Source: a virus
Virus record (IMG/VR): IMGVR_UViG_3300049846_002130
Span: 119,529-183,528 of that record
Length of the DNA stretch: 64,000 bases
Direction: 5' to 3' (one strand)
Positions 3,616 to 62,881 of the stretch are shown here, in pieces (within the stretch, counting starts at the first letter, position 1; the number at the start of each line of letters is the position of its first letter). The notes below the pieces were generated by a model. The model did not search any database, was not told the origin of the DNA, and saw only the letters and a program-made list of their open reading frames with translations. Position numbers and translations under genes: made by a program.

Positions 3616-4086
3616 CTATTCAGCGCTCTCATCCTCCCATAAAGATGGAATCTGCTGTAAAGCTAGATCCCTAATTGTACGAATATATTCCTGTATAGCA
3701 AGAATATCTTTAACCACATAAATCTTTTCTAAGAAGTCTCGTCCAGATACAGTAGGTATTTGGGAAATCCTCATTGCCTTTTTAGTAATGAAGTCATCTT
3801 CATCTAAACTCAAGAAGTAATTAAATTCGTTGAGTGTATGATGGGCTTCATATGGACTAACTTCATGTAGCTTGTTATAGAGTTTAGCTACAAGGGTTGC
3901 CATCGGTCCGCAAGGTAAAAGTTTAGTAGTAAGAGTAAAACTACCAATAGCTATTCTTCTAAACAAATCAGCATAGGGTAATAGAATTGCAAATAAAGCA
4001 TCGTCAACATTCTGACTAGTAGCATTATCTAAATCTTTGTTCTCTAGGTTTGGATTATAGGCAATAGCCTCTGGTTTCAGTTTCAT
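3616..4086 (-). CDS. hypothetical protein
   Basis: ORF track; GGAGG RBS upstream. Confidence 0.6.
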   Translation of the reverse strand: MKLKPEAIAYNPNLENKDLDNATSQNVDDALFAILLPYADLFRRIAIGSFTLTTKLLPCGPMATLVAKLYNKLHEVSPYEAHHTLNEFNYFLSLDEDDFITKKAMRISQIPTVSGRDFLEKIYVVKDILAIQEYIRTIRDLALQQIPSLWEDESAE

Positions 4087-4129
4087 TATCAGCCTCCAAT
4101 AAGAATGAGTCTAACAAATTAGGTTAGCT

Positions 4130-4238
4130 TAGAAAAGACAAACTTTATAGTGCCTGCCACAGGATACTGTCTAACCCAGTATTGATAGAGTTGAACTATC
4201 CACTTATACGTACAAGGTATTAAATGTAATCTTTTCTA
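4130..4238 (-). ncRNA. Y RNA (YrlA-like) candidate
   Basis: terminal stem TAGAAAAGA/TCTTTTCTA, inner stem TATAAGTG/CACTATA, then in order a T-arm (GATAG TTCAACT CTATC), a loop-closed acceptor-like stem and a GG-containing D-like hairpin; Ro60 gene in the window. Confidence 0.6.
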
Positions 4239-4263
4239 CATTTAAACTCAAACTTATTATAGG

Positions 4264-4337
4264 TGGGTAAGGCATCGAGTTCAACGATGCTTTCTACTAG
4301 CTACAAGCTAATCTGGATTGTCTTCTTACACATACCC
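4264..4337 (-). tRNA. atypical tRNA-like RNA (nominal anticodon TGT)
   Basis: acceptor GGGTATG/CTTACCC, anticodon arm ATTAG CTTGTAG CTAGT, T-arm GCATCG TTGAACT CGATGC, no clear D-stem. Confidence 0.5.
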
Positions 4338-4344
4338 AAGTAAT

Positions 4345-4424
4345 TGGAGAGACTAGATTTGAACTAGTGAACCTTTTGGGAACGGTTTTACAGACCGCAT
4401 GCTTTAGCCTCTTGCATACTCTCC
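4345..4424 (-). tRNA. tRNA-Tyr(GTA)
   Basis: cloverleaf; loop CTGTAAA, long variable arm, T-loop TTCAAAT. Confidence 0.85.
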
Positions 4425-4430
4425 AAAAAA

Positions 4431-4566
4431 ACTAGTGTAGATAGATGCTCGGCTCAGCGAATAAACACCTTAAGTGATCAGACAAAAAGTTAATCATTCT
4501 TTTCAGCTTTGCTACAGGATGATCTTCCCAGCTGTAATTTCTTCTACCAACAGCTTTTTACACTAG
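4431..4566. ncRNA. structured RNA candidate of unknown class
   Basis: closing stem CTAGTGTA/TACACTAG with internal hairpins, between two tRNAs. Confidence 0.4.
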
Positions 4567-9859: not shown

Positions 9860-11257
9860 CTAGCGTATCTTTATGTTTTTAATTGTATCTACTAGAGATG
9901 TGCTATCAGAGGCAAATCTAATAACAGCATTAATTAGCTGTGTATTAAGTCCCGACATGTTTAAGGTATTGTCATCTGAGACGGGGACACAAGGTTTAAA
10001 TTCTAGATCCCAGAATACAACTTTACCTTTAATTTTACCTTGCTCTCTTAAGTCAGCATATACTTCTTTAACAGAGGTACTAGTTTGATTTTCTACCCAG
10101 GTTTCATTGTCAGATAAAATAATTGTTAAATCTGTTTCTGGTTGAATAGCTTCCAAAGCAGCAGTTACTCGAGTGCTACCACCAACAGAGAATAAGGTTC
10201 TAATTGAAGTTGAGAATAGTTGCTCTTTAGTTATTGTCTCTTCAATCTCAGTATTAAAGGTAGTTATAGTTGTTTTATCTGTAGCCATATATCTAGCCAA
10301 CCACAAAGCTTTGTCAATGTATTGATGCCTATACATACTTGTAGAAACATCAATAAAGATTTGTATATTTAAATCTGATGATAAAGCAGGAGTGTACTTT
10401 ATTGACTCATTAAGAGCTTGCTCAAATACTGGGCTATAATTAATATTGCGCCAAGTAATTACTAAAGATTCAAGATCTTTACGAAGTGTAGTTGCATCGA
10501 CATCTAGTAATTTACTATCTGTTAGCTCTTTATTATGACTACTAAACTGATTATAGAATTTTCTAATTTGTGTCCAAGTGCTTCGTGTAATTAGATCATC
10601 CTTTTGCTTATCACTCATTTTGTTCCAATGATTGAGAAGCAAAATGCCCGGAGCATATCTTGGTAGTCTATCTGTTAACTCACCAGATAAGAACATTTTA
10701 TATTCATTTAGAAACAATGGATATTCTTTTGTTCTTTTAAATAACCATGAAAAATAATCAACGTGTGTCGAAGGCGGATTGGGATGTGTAAGAGAAATTA
10801 AGTCTTTTAATGTTGGAGTTCCATAATCTTGCGCAAATAAAACTTCTGGTTCTGTCTGTACTAAAAATTCTTTAATATAGTTTTTAGCTGCAGATCCAAG
10901 AGATCTAATACCAATTTCTCCACCTCTAACTAGTTGAACAAACTTTTTAATCATTCCAAGATTGTCTAGTATATATGGGACTGTTTCATTGAATAGCTCT
11001 GGCTCTTTTCTTACTAATAGTAAGATAAGAAGAACAATTGGTGTATCCTTCATCCCAGCTTGAGTTCTTGCATAGATAGCTGTCTGTGCAATATATTCTG
11101 AATCGCATCTATTTGCTGTATCTAATAGCTGCTGTAAATTAGCAGTAGAACGAGTCTTGGAAGTTAAAATAGCTGTTGTTGCAATTTTTGCTAATAATTC
11201 TTCTGGAGTCATTATATCCATAATTCCACCAGCAGAATTTCTTATATGTCCGTCCAT
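9860..11257 (-). CDS. Ro60/TROVE-domain RNA-binding protein with C-terminal vWA domain
   Basis: N-terminal NSAGG..TPEELLAKIATT, AIYAR..GMKDTP, LISLTHP; vWA DVSTSM...GGST...SDNETW. Confidence 0.85.
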   Translation of the reverse strand: MDGHIRNSAGGIMDIMTPEELLAKIATTAILTSKTRSTANLQQLLDTANRCDSEYIAQTAIYARTQAGMKDTPIVLLILLLVRKEPELFNETVPYILDNLGMIKKFVQLVRGGEIGIRSLGSAAKNYIKEFLVQTEPEVLFAQDYGTPTLKDLISLTHPNPPSTHVDYFSWLFKRTKEYPLFLNEYKMFLSGELTDRLPRYAPGILLLNHWNKMSDKQKDDLITRSTWTQIRKFYNQFSSHNKELTDSKLLDVDATTLRKDLESLVITWRNINYSPVFEQALNESIKYTPALSSDLNIQIFIDVSTSMYRHQYIDKALWLARYMATDKTTITTFNTEIEETITKEQLFSTSIRTLFSVGGSTRVTAALEAIQPETDLTIILSDNETWVENQTSTSVKEVYADLREQGKIKGKVVFWDLEFKPCVPVSDDNTLNMSGLNTQLINAVIRFASDSTSLVDTIKNIKIR

Positions 11258-23961: not shown

Positions 23962-24182
23962 AATAAGAAATTATCTAACTTATTTGCAGATAAAGTCTTA
24001 ATTTGATTCAAGATCTTATCTAGTTCTTCAATAGATTGAAATGATTTGGACCCTAAATAGGCTCTATGTCTTGCCCAAGATGGAAATCCCCATACATATA
24101 TTCTATTAGATTCTATCCGTATTGCTAGATTTTTAGCTTCAATTATAGAGTATAAATCAGCTAAACCAATCATCTGATCCAA
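23958..24182 (-). CDS. hypothetical protein
   Basis: coupled to the mnmA stop. Confidence 0.5.
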   Translation of the reverse strand: MDQMIGLADLYSIIEAKNLAIRIESNRIYVWGFPSWARHRAYLGSKSFQSIEELDKILNQIKTLSANKLDNFLF

Positions 24183-25225
24183 CCTCCGCCAATTACTTGG
24201 CCTTGTCTATAAACAACTGCTGCCTGTCCAGGTGTAACTACTGTTGGCGTTTCTATATGTATTGTTTTAGAACCATATACATCGTCTAAAGATATGGTTT
24301 TAACTGGAATACTATTCTTCCTATAGCGAATAACAACTTCAATATCGTTGGTTGGAGTGGGCTCTTCCCAACTAATCCAACCATCTACTCTAAAGCTAGT
24401 AACAGCATTAGCATCTCTAATGTCAGATACATATACTGTACTTGTATCCTTATCTATACGAGTAACAAACAACGGATTATTGCTTTGTGTAATATTTAAT
24501 CCACGACGTTGGCCAATAGTAAAGTTATGAAGACCATTATGCTTTCCTAAAGTGTTTCCATTCTCATGCTTAATTAAACCACTAGTACCAGAAAGATAAG
24601 TTACTATCTGCTTTTCTAAAAATTCTTTATGGGTACCATTAGGAGCAAAGCATAAATTTTGACTTTCTTGCTTATCTGCAATTGGTAAATCAAGCTCCTT
24701 AGCTAAAGCTCTTACATTTTCCTTAGTTAAAGTAGCTAGTGGAAAAAGAATTTTAGATCTAAACAATGGATCTATTGGGAATAGAAAATAAGATTGATCC
24801 TTATTACTATCAAAAGCTTTATAAAGCTTATTGTCAATTAGCTGAGCATAGTGTCCAGTCGCGACATAATCATATCCAAGCGTCTGTGCCAACTCAATAA
24901 GCAAATTGAACTTAAGAATGCCATTGCAATGAGTACACGGAATAGGAGTGCGGCCATTAAAGTATTCCTCCACAAAATTCTGAAGTACAAACTTCTTAAA
25001 GTGTGCTCGGTAATCTGTTACGAAGTATGGTATGTTAAGCTCACTACAAACTATATTGGCATCAATAGCATCTTGTTGTCCACAACAAGACTTTGATATA
25101 ACTTCTTTAACTTCGTCATGGAGCTTCATATGAACTCCAAGTACATCATGGCCATCTCTCTTGAGTAAAGCAGCAGCAACACTGCTGTCAACACCGCCTG
25201 ACATTGCTACTAAAACTTTAGACAT
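24170..25225 (-). CDS. mnmA: tRNA-specific 2-thiouridylase
   Basis: AMSGGVDSSV, CC, TPIPCTHCN, ATGHYA, KDQSYFL, ESQNLCF, TIGQRRG, TPGQAAV. Confidence 0.95.
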   Translation of the reverse strand: MSKVLVAMSGGVDSSVAAALLKRDGHDVLGVHMKLHDEVKEVISKSCCGQQDAIDANIVCSELNIPYFVTDYRAHFKKFVLQNFVEEYFNGRTPIPCTHCNGILKFNLLIELAQTLGYDYVATGHYAQLIDNKLYKAFDSNKDQSYFLFPIDPLFRSKILFPLATLTKENVRALAKELDLPIADKQESQNLCFAPNGTHKEFLEKQIVTYLSGTSGLIKHENGNTLGKHNGLHNFTIGQRRGLNITQSNNPLFVTRIDKDTSTVYVSDIRDANAVTSFRVDGWISWEEPTPTNDIEVVIRYRKNSIPVKTISLDDVYGSKTIHIETPTVVTPGQAAVVYRQGQVIGGGWIR

Positions 25226-34628: not shown

Positions 34629-34645
34629 TATTTCTCCAATAAAAG

Positions 34646-34735
34646 CGGAAGGCTGAGGACTCGAACCCCATACGGCTTTACCCGTACCCAAGCTTTCAAG
34701 GCTTGTCGCCGCCCATCGCAGCTGCTTAACCTTCC
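34646..34735 (-). tRNA. tRNA-Ser(TGA)
   Basis: GGAAGGT/GCCTTCC, G73, loop CTTGAAA, long variable arm. Confidence 0.85.
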
Positions 34736-34740
34736 AATAT

Positions 34741-34826
34741 TAGACCTAATAGGACTCGAACCCCCGGAAGTTATTAACTTCAGTGCTTTTCAAGAGCACC
34801 ATCTTAAACCACTTGATCACAATCCC
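34741..34826 (-). tRNA. chimeric/pseudo tRNA-Ser(TGA)-like gene with a foreign 3' end
   Basis: D, anticodon and variable arms intact, but acceptor GGGATTG vs TAGGTCT and T-stem GGGGG vs CCTAT pair poorly. Confidence 0.65.
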
Positions 34827-34831
34827 AGTTA

Positions 34832-35209
34832 TTAACAAATATTATCGGGTAATGAAATTATATTAGCATGCAATTTCATGTGACAGTTTGCGCATAAGCA
34901 AATACACTTAGCCAATTCAGCTTTAAGCTTTAAAGCTGAATAGCTTCCCTTGGCATTACCGATATTAAAATCTTTTTCGTTTGGATCTAGATGATGAGCA
35001 ACTAAACAAACGAATTCTTTTTCTGGACAGAGATTGCATCCGTTGGACTTAAAGTCATTAATTATAAGTTTGTTTCGAATAGCATATTTTTCTCTATTTT
35101 TGTTATTACGAATTTTCATTTTTTGATTATATATAGAATCAGTATGATATCTATTATTATAGTATTCTCTATTATATTCTTTCCGCTTTTCTTTATCTTT
35201 ACTAGGCAT
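34832..35209 (-). CDS. HNH endonuclease-like protein
   Basis: CxxC...HHLDP..KDF...ELAKC..LCANCH. Confidence 0.8.
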   Translation of the reverse strand: MPSKDKEKRKEYNREYYNNRYHTDSIYNQKMKIRNNKNREKYAIRNKLIINDFKSNGCNLCPEKEFVCLVAHHLDPNEKDFNIGNAKGSYSALKLKAELAKCICLCANCHMKLHANIISLPDNIC

Positions 35210-38122: not shown

Positions 38123-38490
38123 TTATCACCATTAATCCATTTGTTTAGATACTCTTCTGGAAAAACAGAATTATCAGAATTTAGCTCTACAAATGGGTCT
38201 GCTTTAGAACTTTGAGTTAATAGCTTATATTTACTTCCTGATGCAGTTGTTACGATACCGTCTTCATATGAAACAATGGGGCCTGTAACTGTCCATCTTG
38301 CAGGAGGCCGACTTCCATCAGCTTCCTCCTCAACCCATCCAGTAAGACACCAGATCTTAAGATTTGGATCAGTATAGGCTTTCTTAGGAAGCAAAGACCA
38401 CTGACTAAGTGTTCTTCTTCTAGGAGAGTCTTTCGTATCAAAATGTAAGGTTACATTTTGAGTAACTAGTGCAATTAAGTTAGGATCCAT
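38107..38490 (-). CDS. hypothetical phage protein
   Basis: TGPIV...IVTTASGSKYKL pattern. Confidence 0.6.
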   Translation of the reverse strand: MDPNLIALVTQNVTLHFDTKDSPRRRTLSQWSLLPKKAYTDPNLKIWCLTGWVEEEADGSRPPARWTVTGPIVSYEDGIVTTASGSKYKLLTQSSKADPFVELNSDNSVFPEEYLNKWINGDNWVTI

Positions 38491-39788
38491 TAGCTAATCT
38501 CCTCTATATCTATTACATCCTGTTCTTTAGCAATACCTTCAAGGTGTTTAAAGACAAAGCCTTTGTGTTTAAATATTGTACCGAACATATTTGGATGTTC
38601 GACTCTAATACAAACACCTTCAATAGGATGTCTATTATCAATAGGATCTGGTCCATCTGATAGCTGGTGACTAAGTTCCAATAAAGCTTCTTTAGTATCT
38701 AGCTTAAATCTTGTTAGCTCGGGGACATGTTTAAGTCCTAGTTCTTTACACCTAGCTTTAATCTGATCCCAAGATAGTTCTGTTATAGCTCCGTCAGTAT
38801 CACAACTAGTAATTCTATAAACATAAAGTTCATATTGGCCTTCAGAAAGACCATATGAATAAGTAATTGTAGGTGGATAAATCCGGGCTAAAGCTTTTCT
38901 TATATCATCTTTATCTCTTATTAAAGAATGCTGAGCCATGATTGGTTTATTATGCATCCAACCAACTAATTCGTAATATAGAACTTCACCTTTATGAAGA
39001 CTGAGTTTACTGCCTATTGCTTGTCGCCAAGCTCTGTCTCCAAAGTCGGTCTCAATAAGTTTTTCTCTTGGATCAAAAGTAACATTACGACTACCAGTAA
39101 CATGCTTCCAATCACTTTTGGTTTTAAGTACAAATGGAATCTTAAAGAAAGCTAATAACCAATTAATAGCAAGCTTCCAGAACCAAGGTTTTCTTTCAAC
39201 CAAAACATGACCGGTTCTACCACTAGTTCCGTGTAGTTTTTGAGTAATAATTATATCTGCTTGATCTGGAATAGTACTTAAATAATAGCTAAGTTGTTTA
39301 GTGTCATAATGCTTAGGAAGCATTATGATTTCTTTAAGCTTCGTTTTTACTTTGTTTGGCTTCTTTATCAAAGAGGTTGTAGCTTTAGAGAAATATTTAT
39401 TACAAACAAGTTGATTGTTAATTATAGTAAAGGTTTGACCTTCTTTTAGTTCAGCTAAATTAGTACCCGTCCAGCTAAGTTTATCTAGCTCAAGCCAAAT
39501 ACCTTCTGATCTAACTCCTCGAATAGTAATACATTTTATTCTTCGATTAGCTTCGAAGTAACCGTTGGCTTCAGGGTCTTTGTTTTCACCTTTACCACGT
39601 CGGTAAAGATTATTGTGATAACACATCTCATGGCTAAGCTCCCCATCGGAGGGGAAATAAATACCAAGCTGACCATCTTTAACTACATTAGAAACCACAA
39701 CTTCATTACCTAAGCAAGAACCTATTAAAAGTCTACTTGCATTAGGATGTGGTTTTGTTTTTATTCTGGTAATAATTGCTTCATACAT
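38490..39788 (-). CDS. ATP-dependent RNA ligase, DRB0094/Rnl5-like
   Basis: N-terminal OB-like HPNASRL...GIYFP.D; motif I QKLHGTS; YELVG; EGVCIR; FKHK. Confidence 0.8.
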   Translation of the reverse strand: MYEAIITRIKTKPHPNASRLLIGSCLGNEVVVSNVVKDGQLGIYFPSDGELSHEMCYHNNLYRRGKGENKDPEANGYFEANRRIKCITIRGVRSEGIWLELDKLSWTGTNLAELKEGQTFTIINNQLVCNKYFSKATTSLIKKPNKVKTKLKEIIMLPKHYDTKQLSYYLSTIPDQADIIITQKLHGTSGRTGHVLVERKPWFWKLAINWLLAFFKIPFVLKTKSDWKHVTGSRNVTFDPREKLIETDFGDRAWRQAIGSKLSLHKGEVLYYELVGWMHNKPIMAQHSLIRDKDDIRKALARIYPPTITYSYGLSEGQYELYVYRITSCDTDGAITELSWDQIKARCKELGLKHVPELTRFKLDTKEALLELSHQLSDGPDPIDNRHPIEGVCIRVEHPNMFGTIFKHKGFVFKHLEGIAKEQDVIDIEEIS

Positions 39789-60762: not shown

Positions 60763-60836
60763 TGAGAACGACAGGACTCGAACCTGTATAATCCACTTAC
60801 GGTACTTTGATTAGAAGGCAAAGCCGATACGTTCCC
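60763..60836 (-). tRNA. D-armless tRNA-Arg(TCT)-like RNA
   Basis: GGGAACG/CGTTCTC, loop CTTCTAA, T-arm ACAGG TTCGAGT CCTGT; only TATCGG in place of the D-arm. Confidence 0.6.
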
Positions 60837-60845
60837 AGGAGTCTT

Positions 60846-61463
60846 ATGAATTGTTTAAACTGTAATAAGGAAACAACAAATCCTAAATATTGTAGCAAAT
60901 CTTGTTCTGCTAAGATAAACGGAAAGCTATTTCCTAAACGCAAACTTAAAAACTTATGTAGTCGTTGTAAGAATATTAGAGATACTTATACCTCATCCCT
61001 ATGTAAGAGTTGTAGAGCTCAAGGTATTCATATTGGAAATCCAAAAGGAAATTCTAATATTTCTATTGAGCGGCTGAAAAGTATTTCGGTTAATGAAACA
61101 ACTAAAAAATGCCCAAGCTGTAAAGAAATATTGCCGCTTATGCAATTTTATATTCGTCGAGGATTTCGAACTCATTCTTACTGCCGAACATGTGTTTTAA
61201 AACAAACTTCAGATCGGCAAAAGAACTTTAAACTAATGTGCGTTGAATACAAAGGTGGGAAATGTATTTTTTGTGGATATAATCGATGTGTCCAAGCTAT
61301 GGACTTTCATCATTTAGATCCATCTCAAAAAGATTTCGCAGTTTCACAAAGAAAGTCTTTAGCATTTACAGATGTAGTAAGAGCTGAACTAGATAAATGT
61401 GCTTTACTATGTGCTACTTGTCATCGAGAAGTACATGCGGGAGTAATAACTCTTATGCCTTAG
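60846..61463 (+). CDS. HNH endonuclease with N-terminal Zn-finger repeats
   Basis: CxxC repeats; KGGKC..CGY...DFHHLDP..KDF...ELDKC.LLCATCHREVH; start reset to ATG 60846. Confidence 0.85.
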   Translation: MNCLNCNKETTNPKYCSKSCSAKINGKLFPKRKLKNLCSRCKNIRDTYTSSLCKSCRAQGIHIGNPKGNSNISIERLKSISVNETTKKCPSCKEILPLMQFYIRRGFRTHSYCRTCVLKQTSDRQKNFKLMCVEYKGGKCIFCGYNRCVQAMDFHHLDPSQKDFAVSQRKSLAFTDVVRAELDKCALLCATCHREVHAGVITLMP

Positions 61464-61474
61464 GCTACGCGCCC
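61456..61474 (-). pseudogene. isolated tRNA 5' fragment (GGGCGCG TA GCCTAAGGCA)
   Basis: acceptor strand complementary to the fragment at 60686. Confidence 0.55.
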
Positions 61475-62558: not shown

Positions 62559-62881
62559 TGGGCCGTATAGGATTCGAACCTATGACCTCGGGCTTAACGT
62601 CACTGCACTTAGTTTCCTAAGCTACCTTAAAGGCTTGCAGTGCTGGACTATATCATCACCTTCACCTTAAGTGGTCAGGTGCTGTACGTGTAGTCTCTGA
62701 GGACTCTCTGCTAATGCAGGTTGCCTGCTGATTGTCCAATCCATTAAATTTTTACGTTTAGGCACGTATTAATGGCTCTAAGGAGTTTCCAGCATATAGT
62801 ACAGTTCATTTACTATATTTCTATAGTAACGCTCTTATTACACGTTTAAGGCCCTCGCTCTACCAACTGAGCTAACAGCCC
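62559..62881 (-). tRNA. tRNA-Lys(TTT) interrupted by a group I intron
   Basis: exon 1 62881-62848 and exon 2 62597-62559 join into a cloverleaf with loop CTT|TTAA. Confidence 0.85.
62598..62847 (-). mobile_element. group I self-splicing intron (250 nt, no ORF)
   Basis: P TGCTGGAAACTCC, Q AATCAGCAG, R TCAGAGACTAC, S GATATAGTCC, terminal G. Confidence 0.9.

Follow-up and report, generated by a model that had tools for sequence, protein, structure and literature searches.

A group I intron without an ORF in the anticodon of the only tRNA-Lys(UUU) gene of a tailed phage

The only tRNA-Lys(UUU) gene of a complete tailed-phage genome is interrupted within its anticodon, between U34 and U35, by what several sequence analyses confirm to be a genuine, apparently intact, ORF-less group I intron. 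We consider it probable that this is a canonical self-splicing, selfish intron belonging to a site-specific mobile family whose other members interrupt tRNA-Lys(UUU) genes of phages and bacteria.

According to Hausner et al. (2014), all phage introns then known lay in protein-coding genes, despite the many tRNA genes that phages carry (PMC3984707). Devoto et al. (2019) described introns in phage tRNAs as previously unreported (PMC6784885), and Lui et al. (2021) mentioned in passing, with no details, group I introns in a number of tRNAs of genomes from groundwater (PMC8172020). A full-text literature search, in a body that mostly does not include subscription journals, found no description of such an intron in a phage tRNA of any kind, nor in tRNA-Lys(UUU). 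Candidate prior-art elements of 22-49 nt are too short for ribozymes and hence do not represent prior art.

Results

The interrupted tRNA-Lys(UUU) gene

Coordinates refer to the window, meaning the whole 64-kb stretch of DNA that was analysed, unless marked as genome coordinates; the window forms the final 64 kb of an IMG/VR virus record of 183,528 bp. A sequence-only reading of this DNA had proposed a group I intron in the anticodon of a phage tRNA-Lys(UUU), placed after U34 because removal of 62598-62847 gives the loop CUU-UUAA (hyphen marking the junction). It had also reported P, Q, R and S core elements, a terminal G and the lack of an ORF in the intron. All of this was borne out. The Rfam model RF00028 (Intron_gpI) matches positions 62624-62851 of the minus strand along its full length (1-253) with 67.9 bits (E 4.3e-15), compared with a gathering score of 50 bits, and this is the only group I match in the entire 183.5-kb genome. 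ARAGORN, run with introns allowed, called tRNA-Lys(ttt) i(35,250) with the same boundaries as the earlier reading. When the exons are joined, ARAGORN draws a 73-nt cloverleaf with a restored 7-nt loop, CUUUUAA, and the anticodon UUU; it is imperfect in one place, the top of the anticodon stem, where A27.G43 is a mismatch. The four core elements and the terminal G were all mapped at the predicted place on the minus strand, and an ORF scan of the intron found no ORF of 40 aa or longer. The positions of all features are collected in Table 1.

Table 1. Features of the interrupted tRNA-Lys(UUU) gene, its intron and other phage genes considered here (window coordinates unless marked genome)
Feature	Position	Strand	Basis or remark
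tRNA-Lys(UUU), split gene	62559-62881	minus	ARAGORN, introns allowed
tRNA-Lys(UUU) 5' exon, tRNA positions 1-34, ending C32 U33 U34	62848-62881	minus	ARAGORN joined-exon cloverleaf; direct reading
Group I intron, 250 nt, ORF-less, omega-G at 62598	62598-62847	minus	Rfam, ARAGORN, fold, ORF scan
tRNA-Lys(UUU) 3' exon, starting U35 U36 A37 A38 and running to discriminator A	62559-62597	minus	Direct reading; ARAGORN
Internal guide 5'-UAAGAG-3'	62832-62837	minus	Direct reading; script check
P2 hairpin, 8 bp, GAAA loop	62810-62829	minus	Mapped structure; thermodynamic fold
Catalytic core P3-P8	62645-62804	minus	Mapped structure; covariation in 11 relatives
P3	62799-62804/62682-62687	minus	
P/Q elements: P4 5' strand; P4 3' strand	62789-62794; 62726-62731	minus	
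R element CAGAGACUACACG	62687-62699	minus	
P7 (GACUA/UAGUC)	62691-62695/62646-62650	minus	
P8	62677-62681/62657-62661	minus	
S element GAUAUAGUCC	62645-62654	minus	
P9 three-way element: P9 stem, P9a, P9b with GAAA loop	62601-62642	minus	Mapped structure; fold
Free-standing HNH endonuclease gene in tRNA cluster, antisense to tRNAs	60846-61463	plus	phrog_2255, E 2.4e-32; weak PF01844; beside tRNA-Gln
Related HNH gene	34832-35209	minus	Beside tRNA-Ser/Asn
Related HNH gene	genome 8094-8588 (L169:1441-1935)	plus	Beside tRNA-Leu(UAA)
MnmA (tRNA 2-thiouridylase)	24170-25225	minus	PF03054, 228 bits
RNA ligase (PF09414; phrog_968) and 465-aa 'RNA-binding protein' family match (phrog_850), as listed	38490-39788 and 9860-11257	minus	

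Anatomy and predicted fold of the ribozyme

The internal guide can pair with both exons at the proposed junction. Its GAG faces C32, U33 and U34 of the 5' exon to form P1, with C32-G and U33-A pairs and a wobble between U34 (62848) and G (62834), while its UAA faces UUA of the 3' exon (U35, U36 and A37) to form P10. A U.G wobble in P1 is the mark of a group I 5' splice site. The P3/P7 pseudoknot and all core helices from P3 to P8 can be drawn on the phage sequence; P5 with an extended P5a/P5b, as well as P6/P6a, were also drawn, and every drawn helix uses standard pairs. The isolated intron has a computed fold of -69.5 kcal/mol (z = -3.53), a stability equalled by none of 200 shuffled sequences, and this thermodynamic fold recovers P2, P4, P5, P5a, P5b, P6a, P8, P9, P9a and P9b. 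Judged by the structure drawing and the fold, the intron is without P5abc, P2.1 and P7.1/7.2 and fits a compact intron.

Covariation in the type-A members

Eleven non-identical members sharing the core type of the phage intron (type A, see below) were aligned with MAFFT, and the structure tested on them was drawn from the phage's own sequence. Standard pairs occupy 89.7% of cells, and sliding the 3' partners along by 1-3 columns lowers this to 33-46%; these controls are somewhat inflated because the structure derives from one of the aligned sequences and the sequences are related. Both sides have changed in 41 of the 75 pairs, and the covariation score is 0.358 against 0.03-0.11 in the slid versions. 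None of 500 shuffles matched any observed measure. Covarying pairs make up 5 of 6 in P3, 6 of 7 in P5a, 4 of 5 in P8, 4 of 6 in P9 and 5 of 5 in P9b, with P9 and P9b 100% paired among the 11 members. All four inner pairs of P2 covary, and P7 displays one compensatory exchange of A-U for U-A. Within the Lys family no variation in P1 or P10 can appear, since the search pattern fixed both. The pattern of substitutions shows that the predicted ribozyme fold has been maintained by evolution in the type-A members.

A family of introns in tRNA-Lys(UUU) genes

A search with a pattern from the intron core returned 75 viral loci. Two of them (L028 and L046) have an intron about 70% identical to that of the phage; the insertion site and the guide are shared, and the surrounding tRNA-Lys(UUU) body is another one. 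A second pattern combined the D arm of tRNA-Lys with CUU and the guide (AAUAAGAG). It found interrupted tRNA-Lys genes in viral contigs (L126, L127, L129, L131, L132 and L133), in the bacterial genomes of L138, L162 (Berkelbacteria), L150 (a Sediminibacterium MAG) and L155 (Blastopirellula), and in further metagenome contigs. Matches in Nocardioides were discarded as family members, being ordinary tRNA-Thr genes that fit the pattern by chance. A tenth viral member (L030) is a gene truncated at its 5' end. A script fully resolved 39 genes of viral, metagenome and bacterial origin, and in every one CUU is followed by an intron ending in G and then by UUAA. Acceptor and anticodon stems are diverse among these 39 genes, and intron length ranges from 211 to 803 nt. 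The phage intron is 66-73% identical to its nearest relatives, a distance that speaks against its having been acquired recently from any of the sources sampled. Taken together, the loci suggest that tRNA-Lys(UUU) is a recurrent target of a site-specific mobile intron family in phages and in bacteria of several phyla.

Two types of core sequence occupy the one Lys site, with the guide and the P9 end common to both. The phage intron is of type A; type B comprises L181, L190, L204, L231, L237, L238 and L240, and its core presumably resembles that of the classical IC3 tRNA introns. The P9 stem, ACCAC/GUGGU, is nearly identical in the two types despite their different cores. The shared guide and P9 stem suggest either common ancestry with divergence of the core or recombination between introns.

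In viral contigs the interrupted state is in the minority, with about 10 interrupted genes compared with at least 116 uninterrupted loci that have the same D arm. The gathering score of RF00028 was reached by four (L028, L046, L232 and L251) of the 16 family-related loci searched, the other two sources in that search being HNH loci, and RF00028 is therefore insensitive as a census tool for this family. Five introns of 497-584 nt (L126, L131, L198, L206 and L215) have no ORF of 50 aa or longer on either strand; such long ORF-less introns may include the remains of endonuclease genes or additional RNA domains.

The interrupted gene of L150 lies on a contig assigned to the Sediminibacterium MAG, in an 8-kb stretch that also contains about 18 tRNA genes and a tmRNA gene. 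This array looks like a phage or a mobile tRNA island that was binned with the MAG. Elsewhere, the same MAG has an uninterrupted tRNA-Lys(UUU) gene (L252).

The guide in tRNA-Arg(UCU) and uninterrupted tRNA-Lys genes

A homologous type-B intron (L251; Rfam 54.1 bits) splits a tRNA-Arg(UCU) gene after U34. Its guide is UAGGAG and lies opposite CUU-CUA, so that the first P10 pair is changed on both sides relative to the Lys introns. This difference between Arg and Lys guides is a natural compensatory change in P10 and gives the guide model independent support. The split tRNA-Arg(UCU) gene is at 3792-4556 on the minus strand of a 252-kb viral contig; its intron is 690 nt long and has a 156-aa HNH ORF on the antisense strand (4001-4471, plus).

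The uninterrupted gene L252 bears on the splice junction. Its central 41 nt, from the D arm to the variable loop, are identical to the ligated exons of L126, L131 and L191, and removal of the intron at the predicted bonds would therefore recreate a natural gene in that lineage. For the phage's own tRNA-Lys, a joined-exon pattern had no viral match to an uninterrupted allele, and the best match to its joined exons among 117 uninterrupted viral tRNA-Lys(UUU) genes listed was 57/73. The genomes of L138, L155 and L162 gave no uninterrupted copy by pattern, the pattern being narrow and the genomes possibly incomplete.

Endonucleases of the family and HNH genes of the phage

The introns of L212, L213 and L245 contain ORFs of 160-169 aa that match Pfam PF11645, a PD-(D/E)XK family, with E values of 1e-18 to 3e-20. 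Their only match among solved structures is PDB 2OST, titled 'putative endonuclease', which we take to be I-Ssp6803I, the homing endonuclease of the cyanobacterial (Synechocystis) tRNA-fMet intron. The presence of these ORFs in relatives indicates that the family includes classical homing introns, of which the phage intron would be an endonuclease-less copy.

The HNH gene that the sequence-only reading had noticed near the intron is indeed there (phrog_2255; Table 1). A stretch of 1.1 kb that includes genes for tRNA-Gln and tRNA-Met separates it from the intron. The zinc-finger module at the N terminus of its product shares 59% identity with that of the HNH ORF inside the L251 tRNA-Arg(UCU) intron. 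The other two related HNH genes of the phage match phrog_3106 and phrog_4234. The three genes, each beside tRNA genes, look like free-standing homing endonucleases that colonise phage tRNA loci. A profile search of the phage genome for HNH_3 (PF13392) gave no match.

A tRNA-like element at 60763-60836 on the minus strand abuts the start of the nearby HNH gene. With 30.4 bits, it scores just above the Rfam tRNA cut-off; its acceptor stem and T arm are good, its variable arm is long and its D arm is poor. ARAGORN combined this element with a weak 5' half at 61444-61474 into a tRNA-Asn(att) i(32,625) that encloses the HNH gene. We rejected this call as a split tRNA because of its 3-bp D stem, a mismatch in the acceptor stem and the lack of room for a ribozyme.

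The phage genome and its tRNA set

The record is a complete genome of 183,528 bp with terminal repeats and 39.9% G+C. Genes for terminase, portal, major head, tail sheath and primase-helicase proteins identify a tailed phage, and no cultured phage has a terminase more than 29% identical to its own. A ClpB-like protein was uninformative as a marker for placing the phage. Pfam searches of the phage genome found no match to the HK97 capsid and none to Gp23, the latter result being uninformative because the Gp23 control likewise gave none in any genome.

The genome has 12 tRNA genes, and the split gene is its only tRNA-Lys. Lys UUU, Glu UUC and Gln UUG are all in the set. In well-studied bacteria these three tRNAs are the substrates of MnmA, which the phage encodes, as it does an RNA ligase (Table 1). 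Two calls for tRNA-Ser(UGA) lie in tandem on the minus strand, at 34645-34735 and 34740-34827. The first of these scores higher with the Rfam tRNA-Sec model (36.3 bits, below the cut-off of 47) than with the general tRNA model.

Discussion

A selfish, self-splicing intron as the preferred reading

The mechanism that we envisage for the phage intron is canonical and of the textbook kind, and we found nothing that points to a new one. In the precursor, the guide UAAGAG would pair with the last exon bases, CUU, to form P1, in which U34.G marks the 5' splice site. After attack by guanosine, the guide would align UUA of the 3' exon through P10 while the terminal G (62598) enters the pocket in P7; the exons would then be joined and the loop CUUUUAA restored. 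Modification of U34 and use of the tRNA would come only after splicing, and modification would have to follow it because U34 is paired in P1 beforehand. The intron is most likely selfish, and harmless because it splices. It was presumably acquired by endonuclease-driven homing, the endonuclease gene having since been lost or never having been present. We infer that the intron does splice, that its history is one of homing and that it has no regulatory role; the selfish and neutral role is our default assumption.

Two expectations of the sequence-only reading stood in part. It had called tRNA-Lys an unusual host for such an intron, which is true of the literature, where tRNA-Lys is absent from the published hosts that we found, but not of nature, where at least 39 genes are now resolved. 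It had also proposed that splicing gates Lys decoding. This is trivially so, as the phage-encoded tRNA-Lys has to be spliced before it can work, but a regulatory role looks doubtful, given that the host presumably supplies tRNA-Lys and that the family also occurs in bacteria.

Alternative explanations

Two alternatives question the splicing reaction itself. If the local hairpin ACGU/GCGU served as P1, the 5' cut would come after base six of the intron (62842), and the product would not be a tRNA-Lys. The Rfam alignment does put the U.G of the model's splice site at this hairpin, at the 5' end of the intron, and the minimum free energy fold of the isolated intron forms it. However, the hairpin is missing in relatives such as L028, L046 and L138, and, as P1, it would have a 13-nt loop and yield no tRNA. 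Such a reading also disregards both the six-base match of the guide to CUU-UUA and the covariation between Arg and Lys guides. We reject the hairpin as P1 because of its loss in relatives, its 13-nt loop and the guide match that it ignores, and we regard this splice site as scarcely credible. The ribozyme could instead have decayed, leaving an unspliced precursor and a tRNA-Lys pseudogene; the lack of an endonuclease gene, the A27.G43 mismatch and an identity of merely 66-73% to the nearest relatives would all fit. Yet every core helix is intact in the phage copy and the changes relative to other members are compensatory. The Rfam score is well over the cut-off, the copy retains the U.G, the omega-G, P10 and a P7 of standard form, and the exons still form a good cloverleaf. 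A dead intron is, in our estimate, highly improbable.

Other alternatives concern what the intron does and how it spreads. The presence of MnmA, an RNA ligase and this tRNA set, together with the placing of U34 in P1, makes a counter-defence or timing role conceivable: P1 would hide the U33-U34 region from nucleases of the PrrC or RloC type, and splicing would supply fresh tRNA-Lys at times set by the phage, whose MnmA would then thiolate it. It agrees with this idea that the split gene is the phage's only tRNA-Lys and that MnmA is encoded along with exactly its three substrate tRNAs. Against it, this intron family is also at home in the genomes of bacteria from several phyla, and part of its members encode a homing endonuclease, so that selfish homing is a sufficient and simpler reading. 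Moreover, with its ordinary CUUUUAA loop, the spliced tRNA-Lys would be open to cleavage just as that of the host is. We therefore consider a device of this kind distinctly unlikely. We are just as doubtful that, in an arms race over tRNA-Lys, phage tRNA-Lys(UUU) introns are maintained in a private Lys-decoding pathway in which P1 hides the nuclease site, self-splicing provides new tRNA-Lys in the course of infection, MnmA thiolates U34 and the RNA ligase repairs cleaved copies. Collaborative (trans) homing, as suggested by the sequence-only reading, would have the HNH enzyme encoded 1.1 kb away spread the ORF-less intron by cutting tRNA-Lys(UUU) genes that lack an intron, at the insertion site or close to it. 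The place of its gene within the tRNA cluster and near the intron, the two further related genes that adjoin tRNA genes and the module shared with the HNH inside a tRNA-Arg(UCU) group I intron are all consistent with such a route, and collaborative homing has been documented for two phages (PMC3984707). However, with two tRNA genes between the HNH gene and the intron, the target could be either of these, the Lys gene or none. The endonucleases found within introns of the Lys family are PD-(D/E)XK enzymes, not HNH, and the searched collections held no close relatives of the phage in which co-occurrence could be followed. We think trans homing by this enzyme unlikely.

Significance

Together, the locus and its family indicate that classical introns of the self-splicing kind have indeed found their way into the tRNA genes of phages. 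The family of tRNA-Lys(UUU) group I introns is widespread and apparently undescribed. Its host tRNA is off the published list and yet has been targeted repeatedly, both in phages and across several bacterial phyla, and the family spans two types of ribozyme core as well as PD-(D/E)XK homing endonucleases. Since default tRNA finders miss such split genes, the tRNA sets of phages and MAGs are under-counted. The family also offers a compact natural set of ribozymes for comparative work.

Comparison with known systems

The closest parallel in position is the tRNA-Leu(UAA) intron of cyanobacteria and plastids, which lies after CUU, between U34 and position 35, is usually ORF-less, has a guide that pairs with anticodon-loop bases and self-splices. 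The phage intron likewise splits the anticodon after CUU, between U34 and position 35. The two differ in that the former has tRNA-Leu as its host, a guide tuned to UAA and a place in cyanobacterial or plastid chromosomes, whereas the latter is in a tRNA-Lys gene of a phage. The IC3 introns of Azoarcus tRNA-Ile(CAU) and Agrobacterium tRNA-Arg(CCU) are compact and ORF-less, interrupt the anticodon loop and have a three-base exon part of P1 and peripheral GNRA loops. They share the compact, ORF-less, anticodon-loop design with the phage intron but reside in other tRNAs and on bacterial chromosomes. Within the Lys family itself, the sequence of the phage's type-A core is unlike that of the type-B core seen in other members.

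The Synechocystis tRNA-fMet intron, with I-Ssp6803I, also belongs to group I and interrupts its tRNA in the anticodon loop, and L212, L213 and L245 encode proteins of the same family, PF11645; it differs in its tRNA and insertion site, and the phage copy is without an ORF. All of these bacterial tRNA introns (Leu UAA, fMet, Ile CAU and Arg CCU) reside in chromosomes, whereas the present intron is in a complete tailed-phage genome and has relatives in bacteria. Known phage introns such as those of the portal gene of Pseudomonas phage KIL, of large Bacillus phages and of T4 td and nrdB interrupt genes that encode proteins, not tRNAs. The P3-P5 core of the phage intron is 75-81% identical over 66-88 nt to phage protein-gene introns, and an exact 21-mer of the core is present at 51 viral loci, none of them in a tRNA apart from the Lys members.

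With respect to mobility, the ORF-less psbA intron of a cyanophage homes with a free-standing endonuclease, according to the work of Zeng, Bonocora and Shub (2009) as cited in PMC3984707. Here, too, an ORF-less intron has a gene for a free-standing endonuclease nearby, an HNH in this phage, but that gene is not adjacent to the interrupted tRNA-Lys gene. The Lak megaphages, finally, have 'enigmatic' tRNA introns that are short, partly tRNA-shaped, assigned to no class and variably present or absent (Devoto et al. 2019, PMC6784885). Like the intron described here, these interrupt phage tRNA genes; unlike it, they are not group I, whereas the tRNA-Lys(UUU) intron has the features of a bona fide ribozyme.
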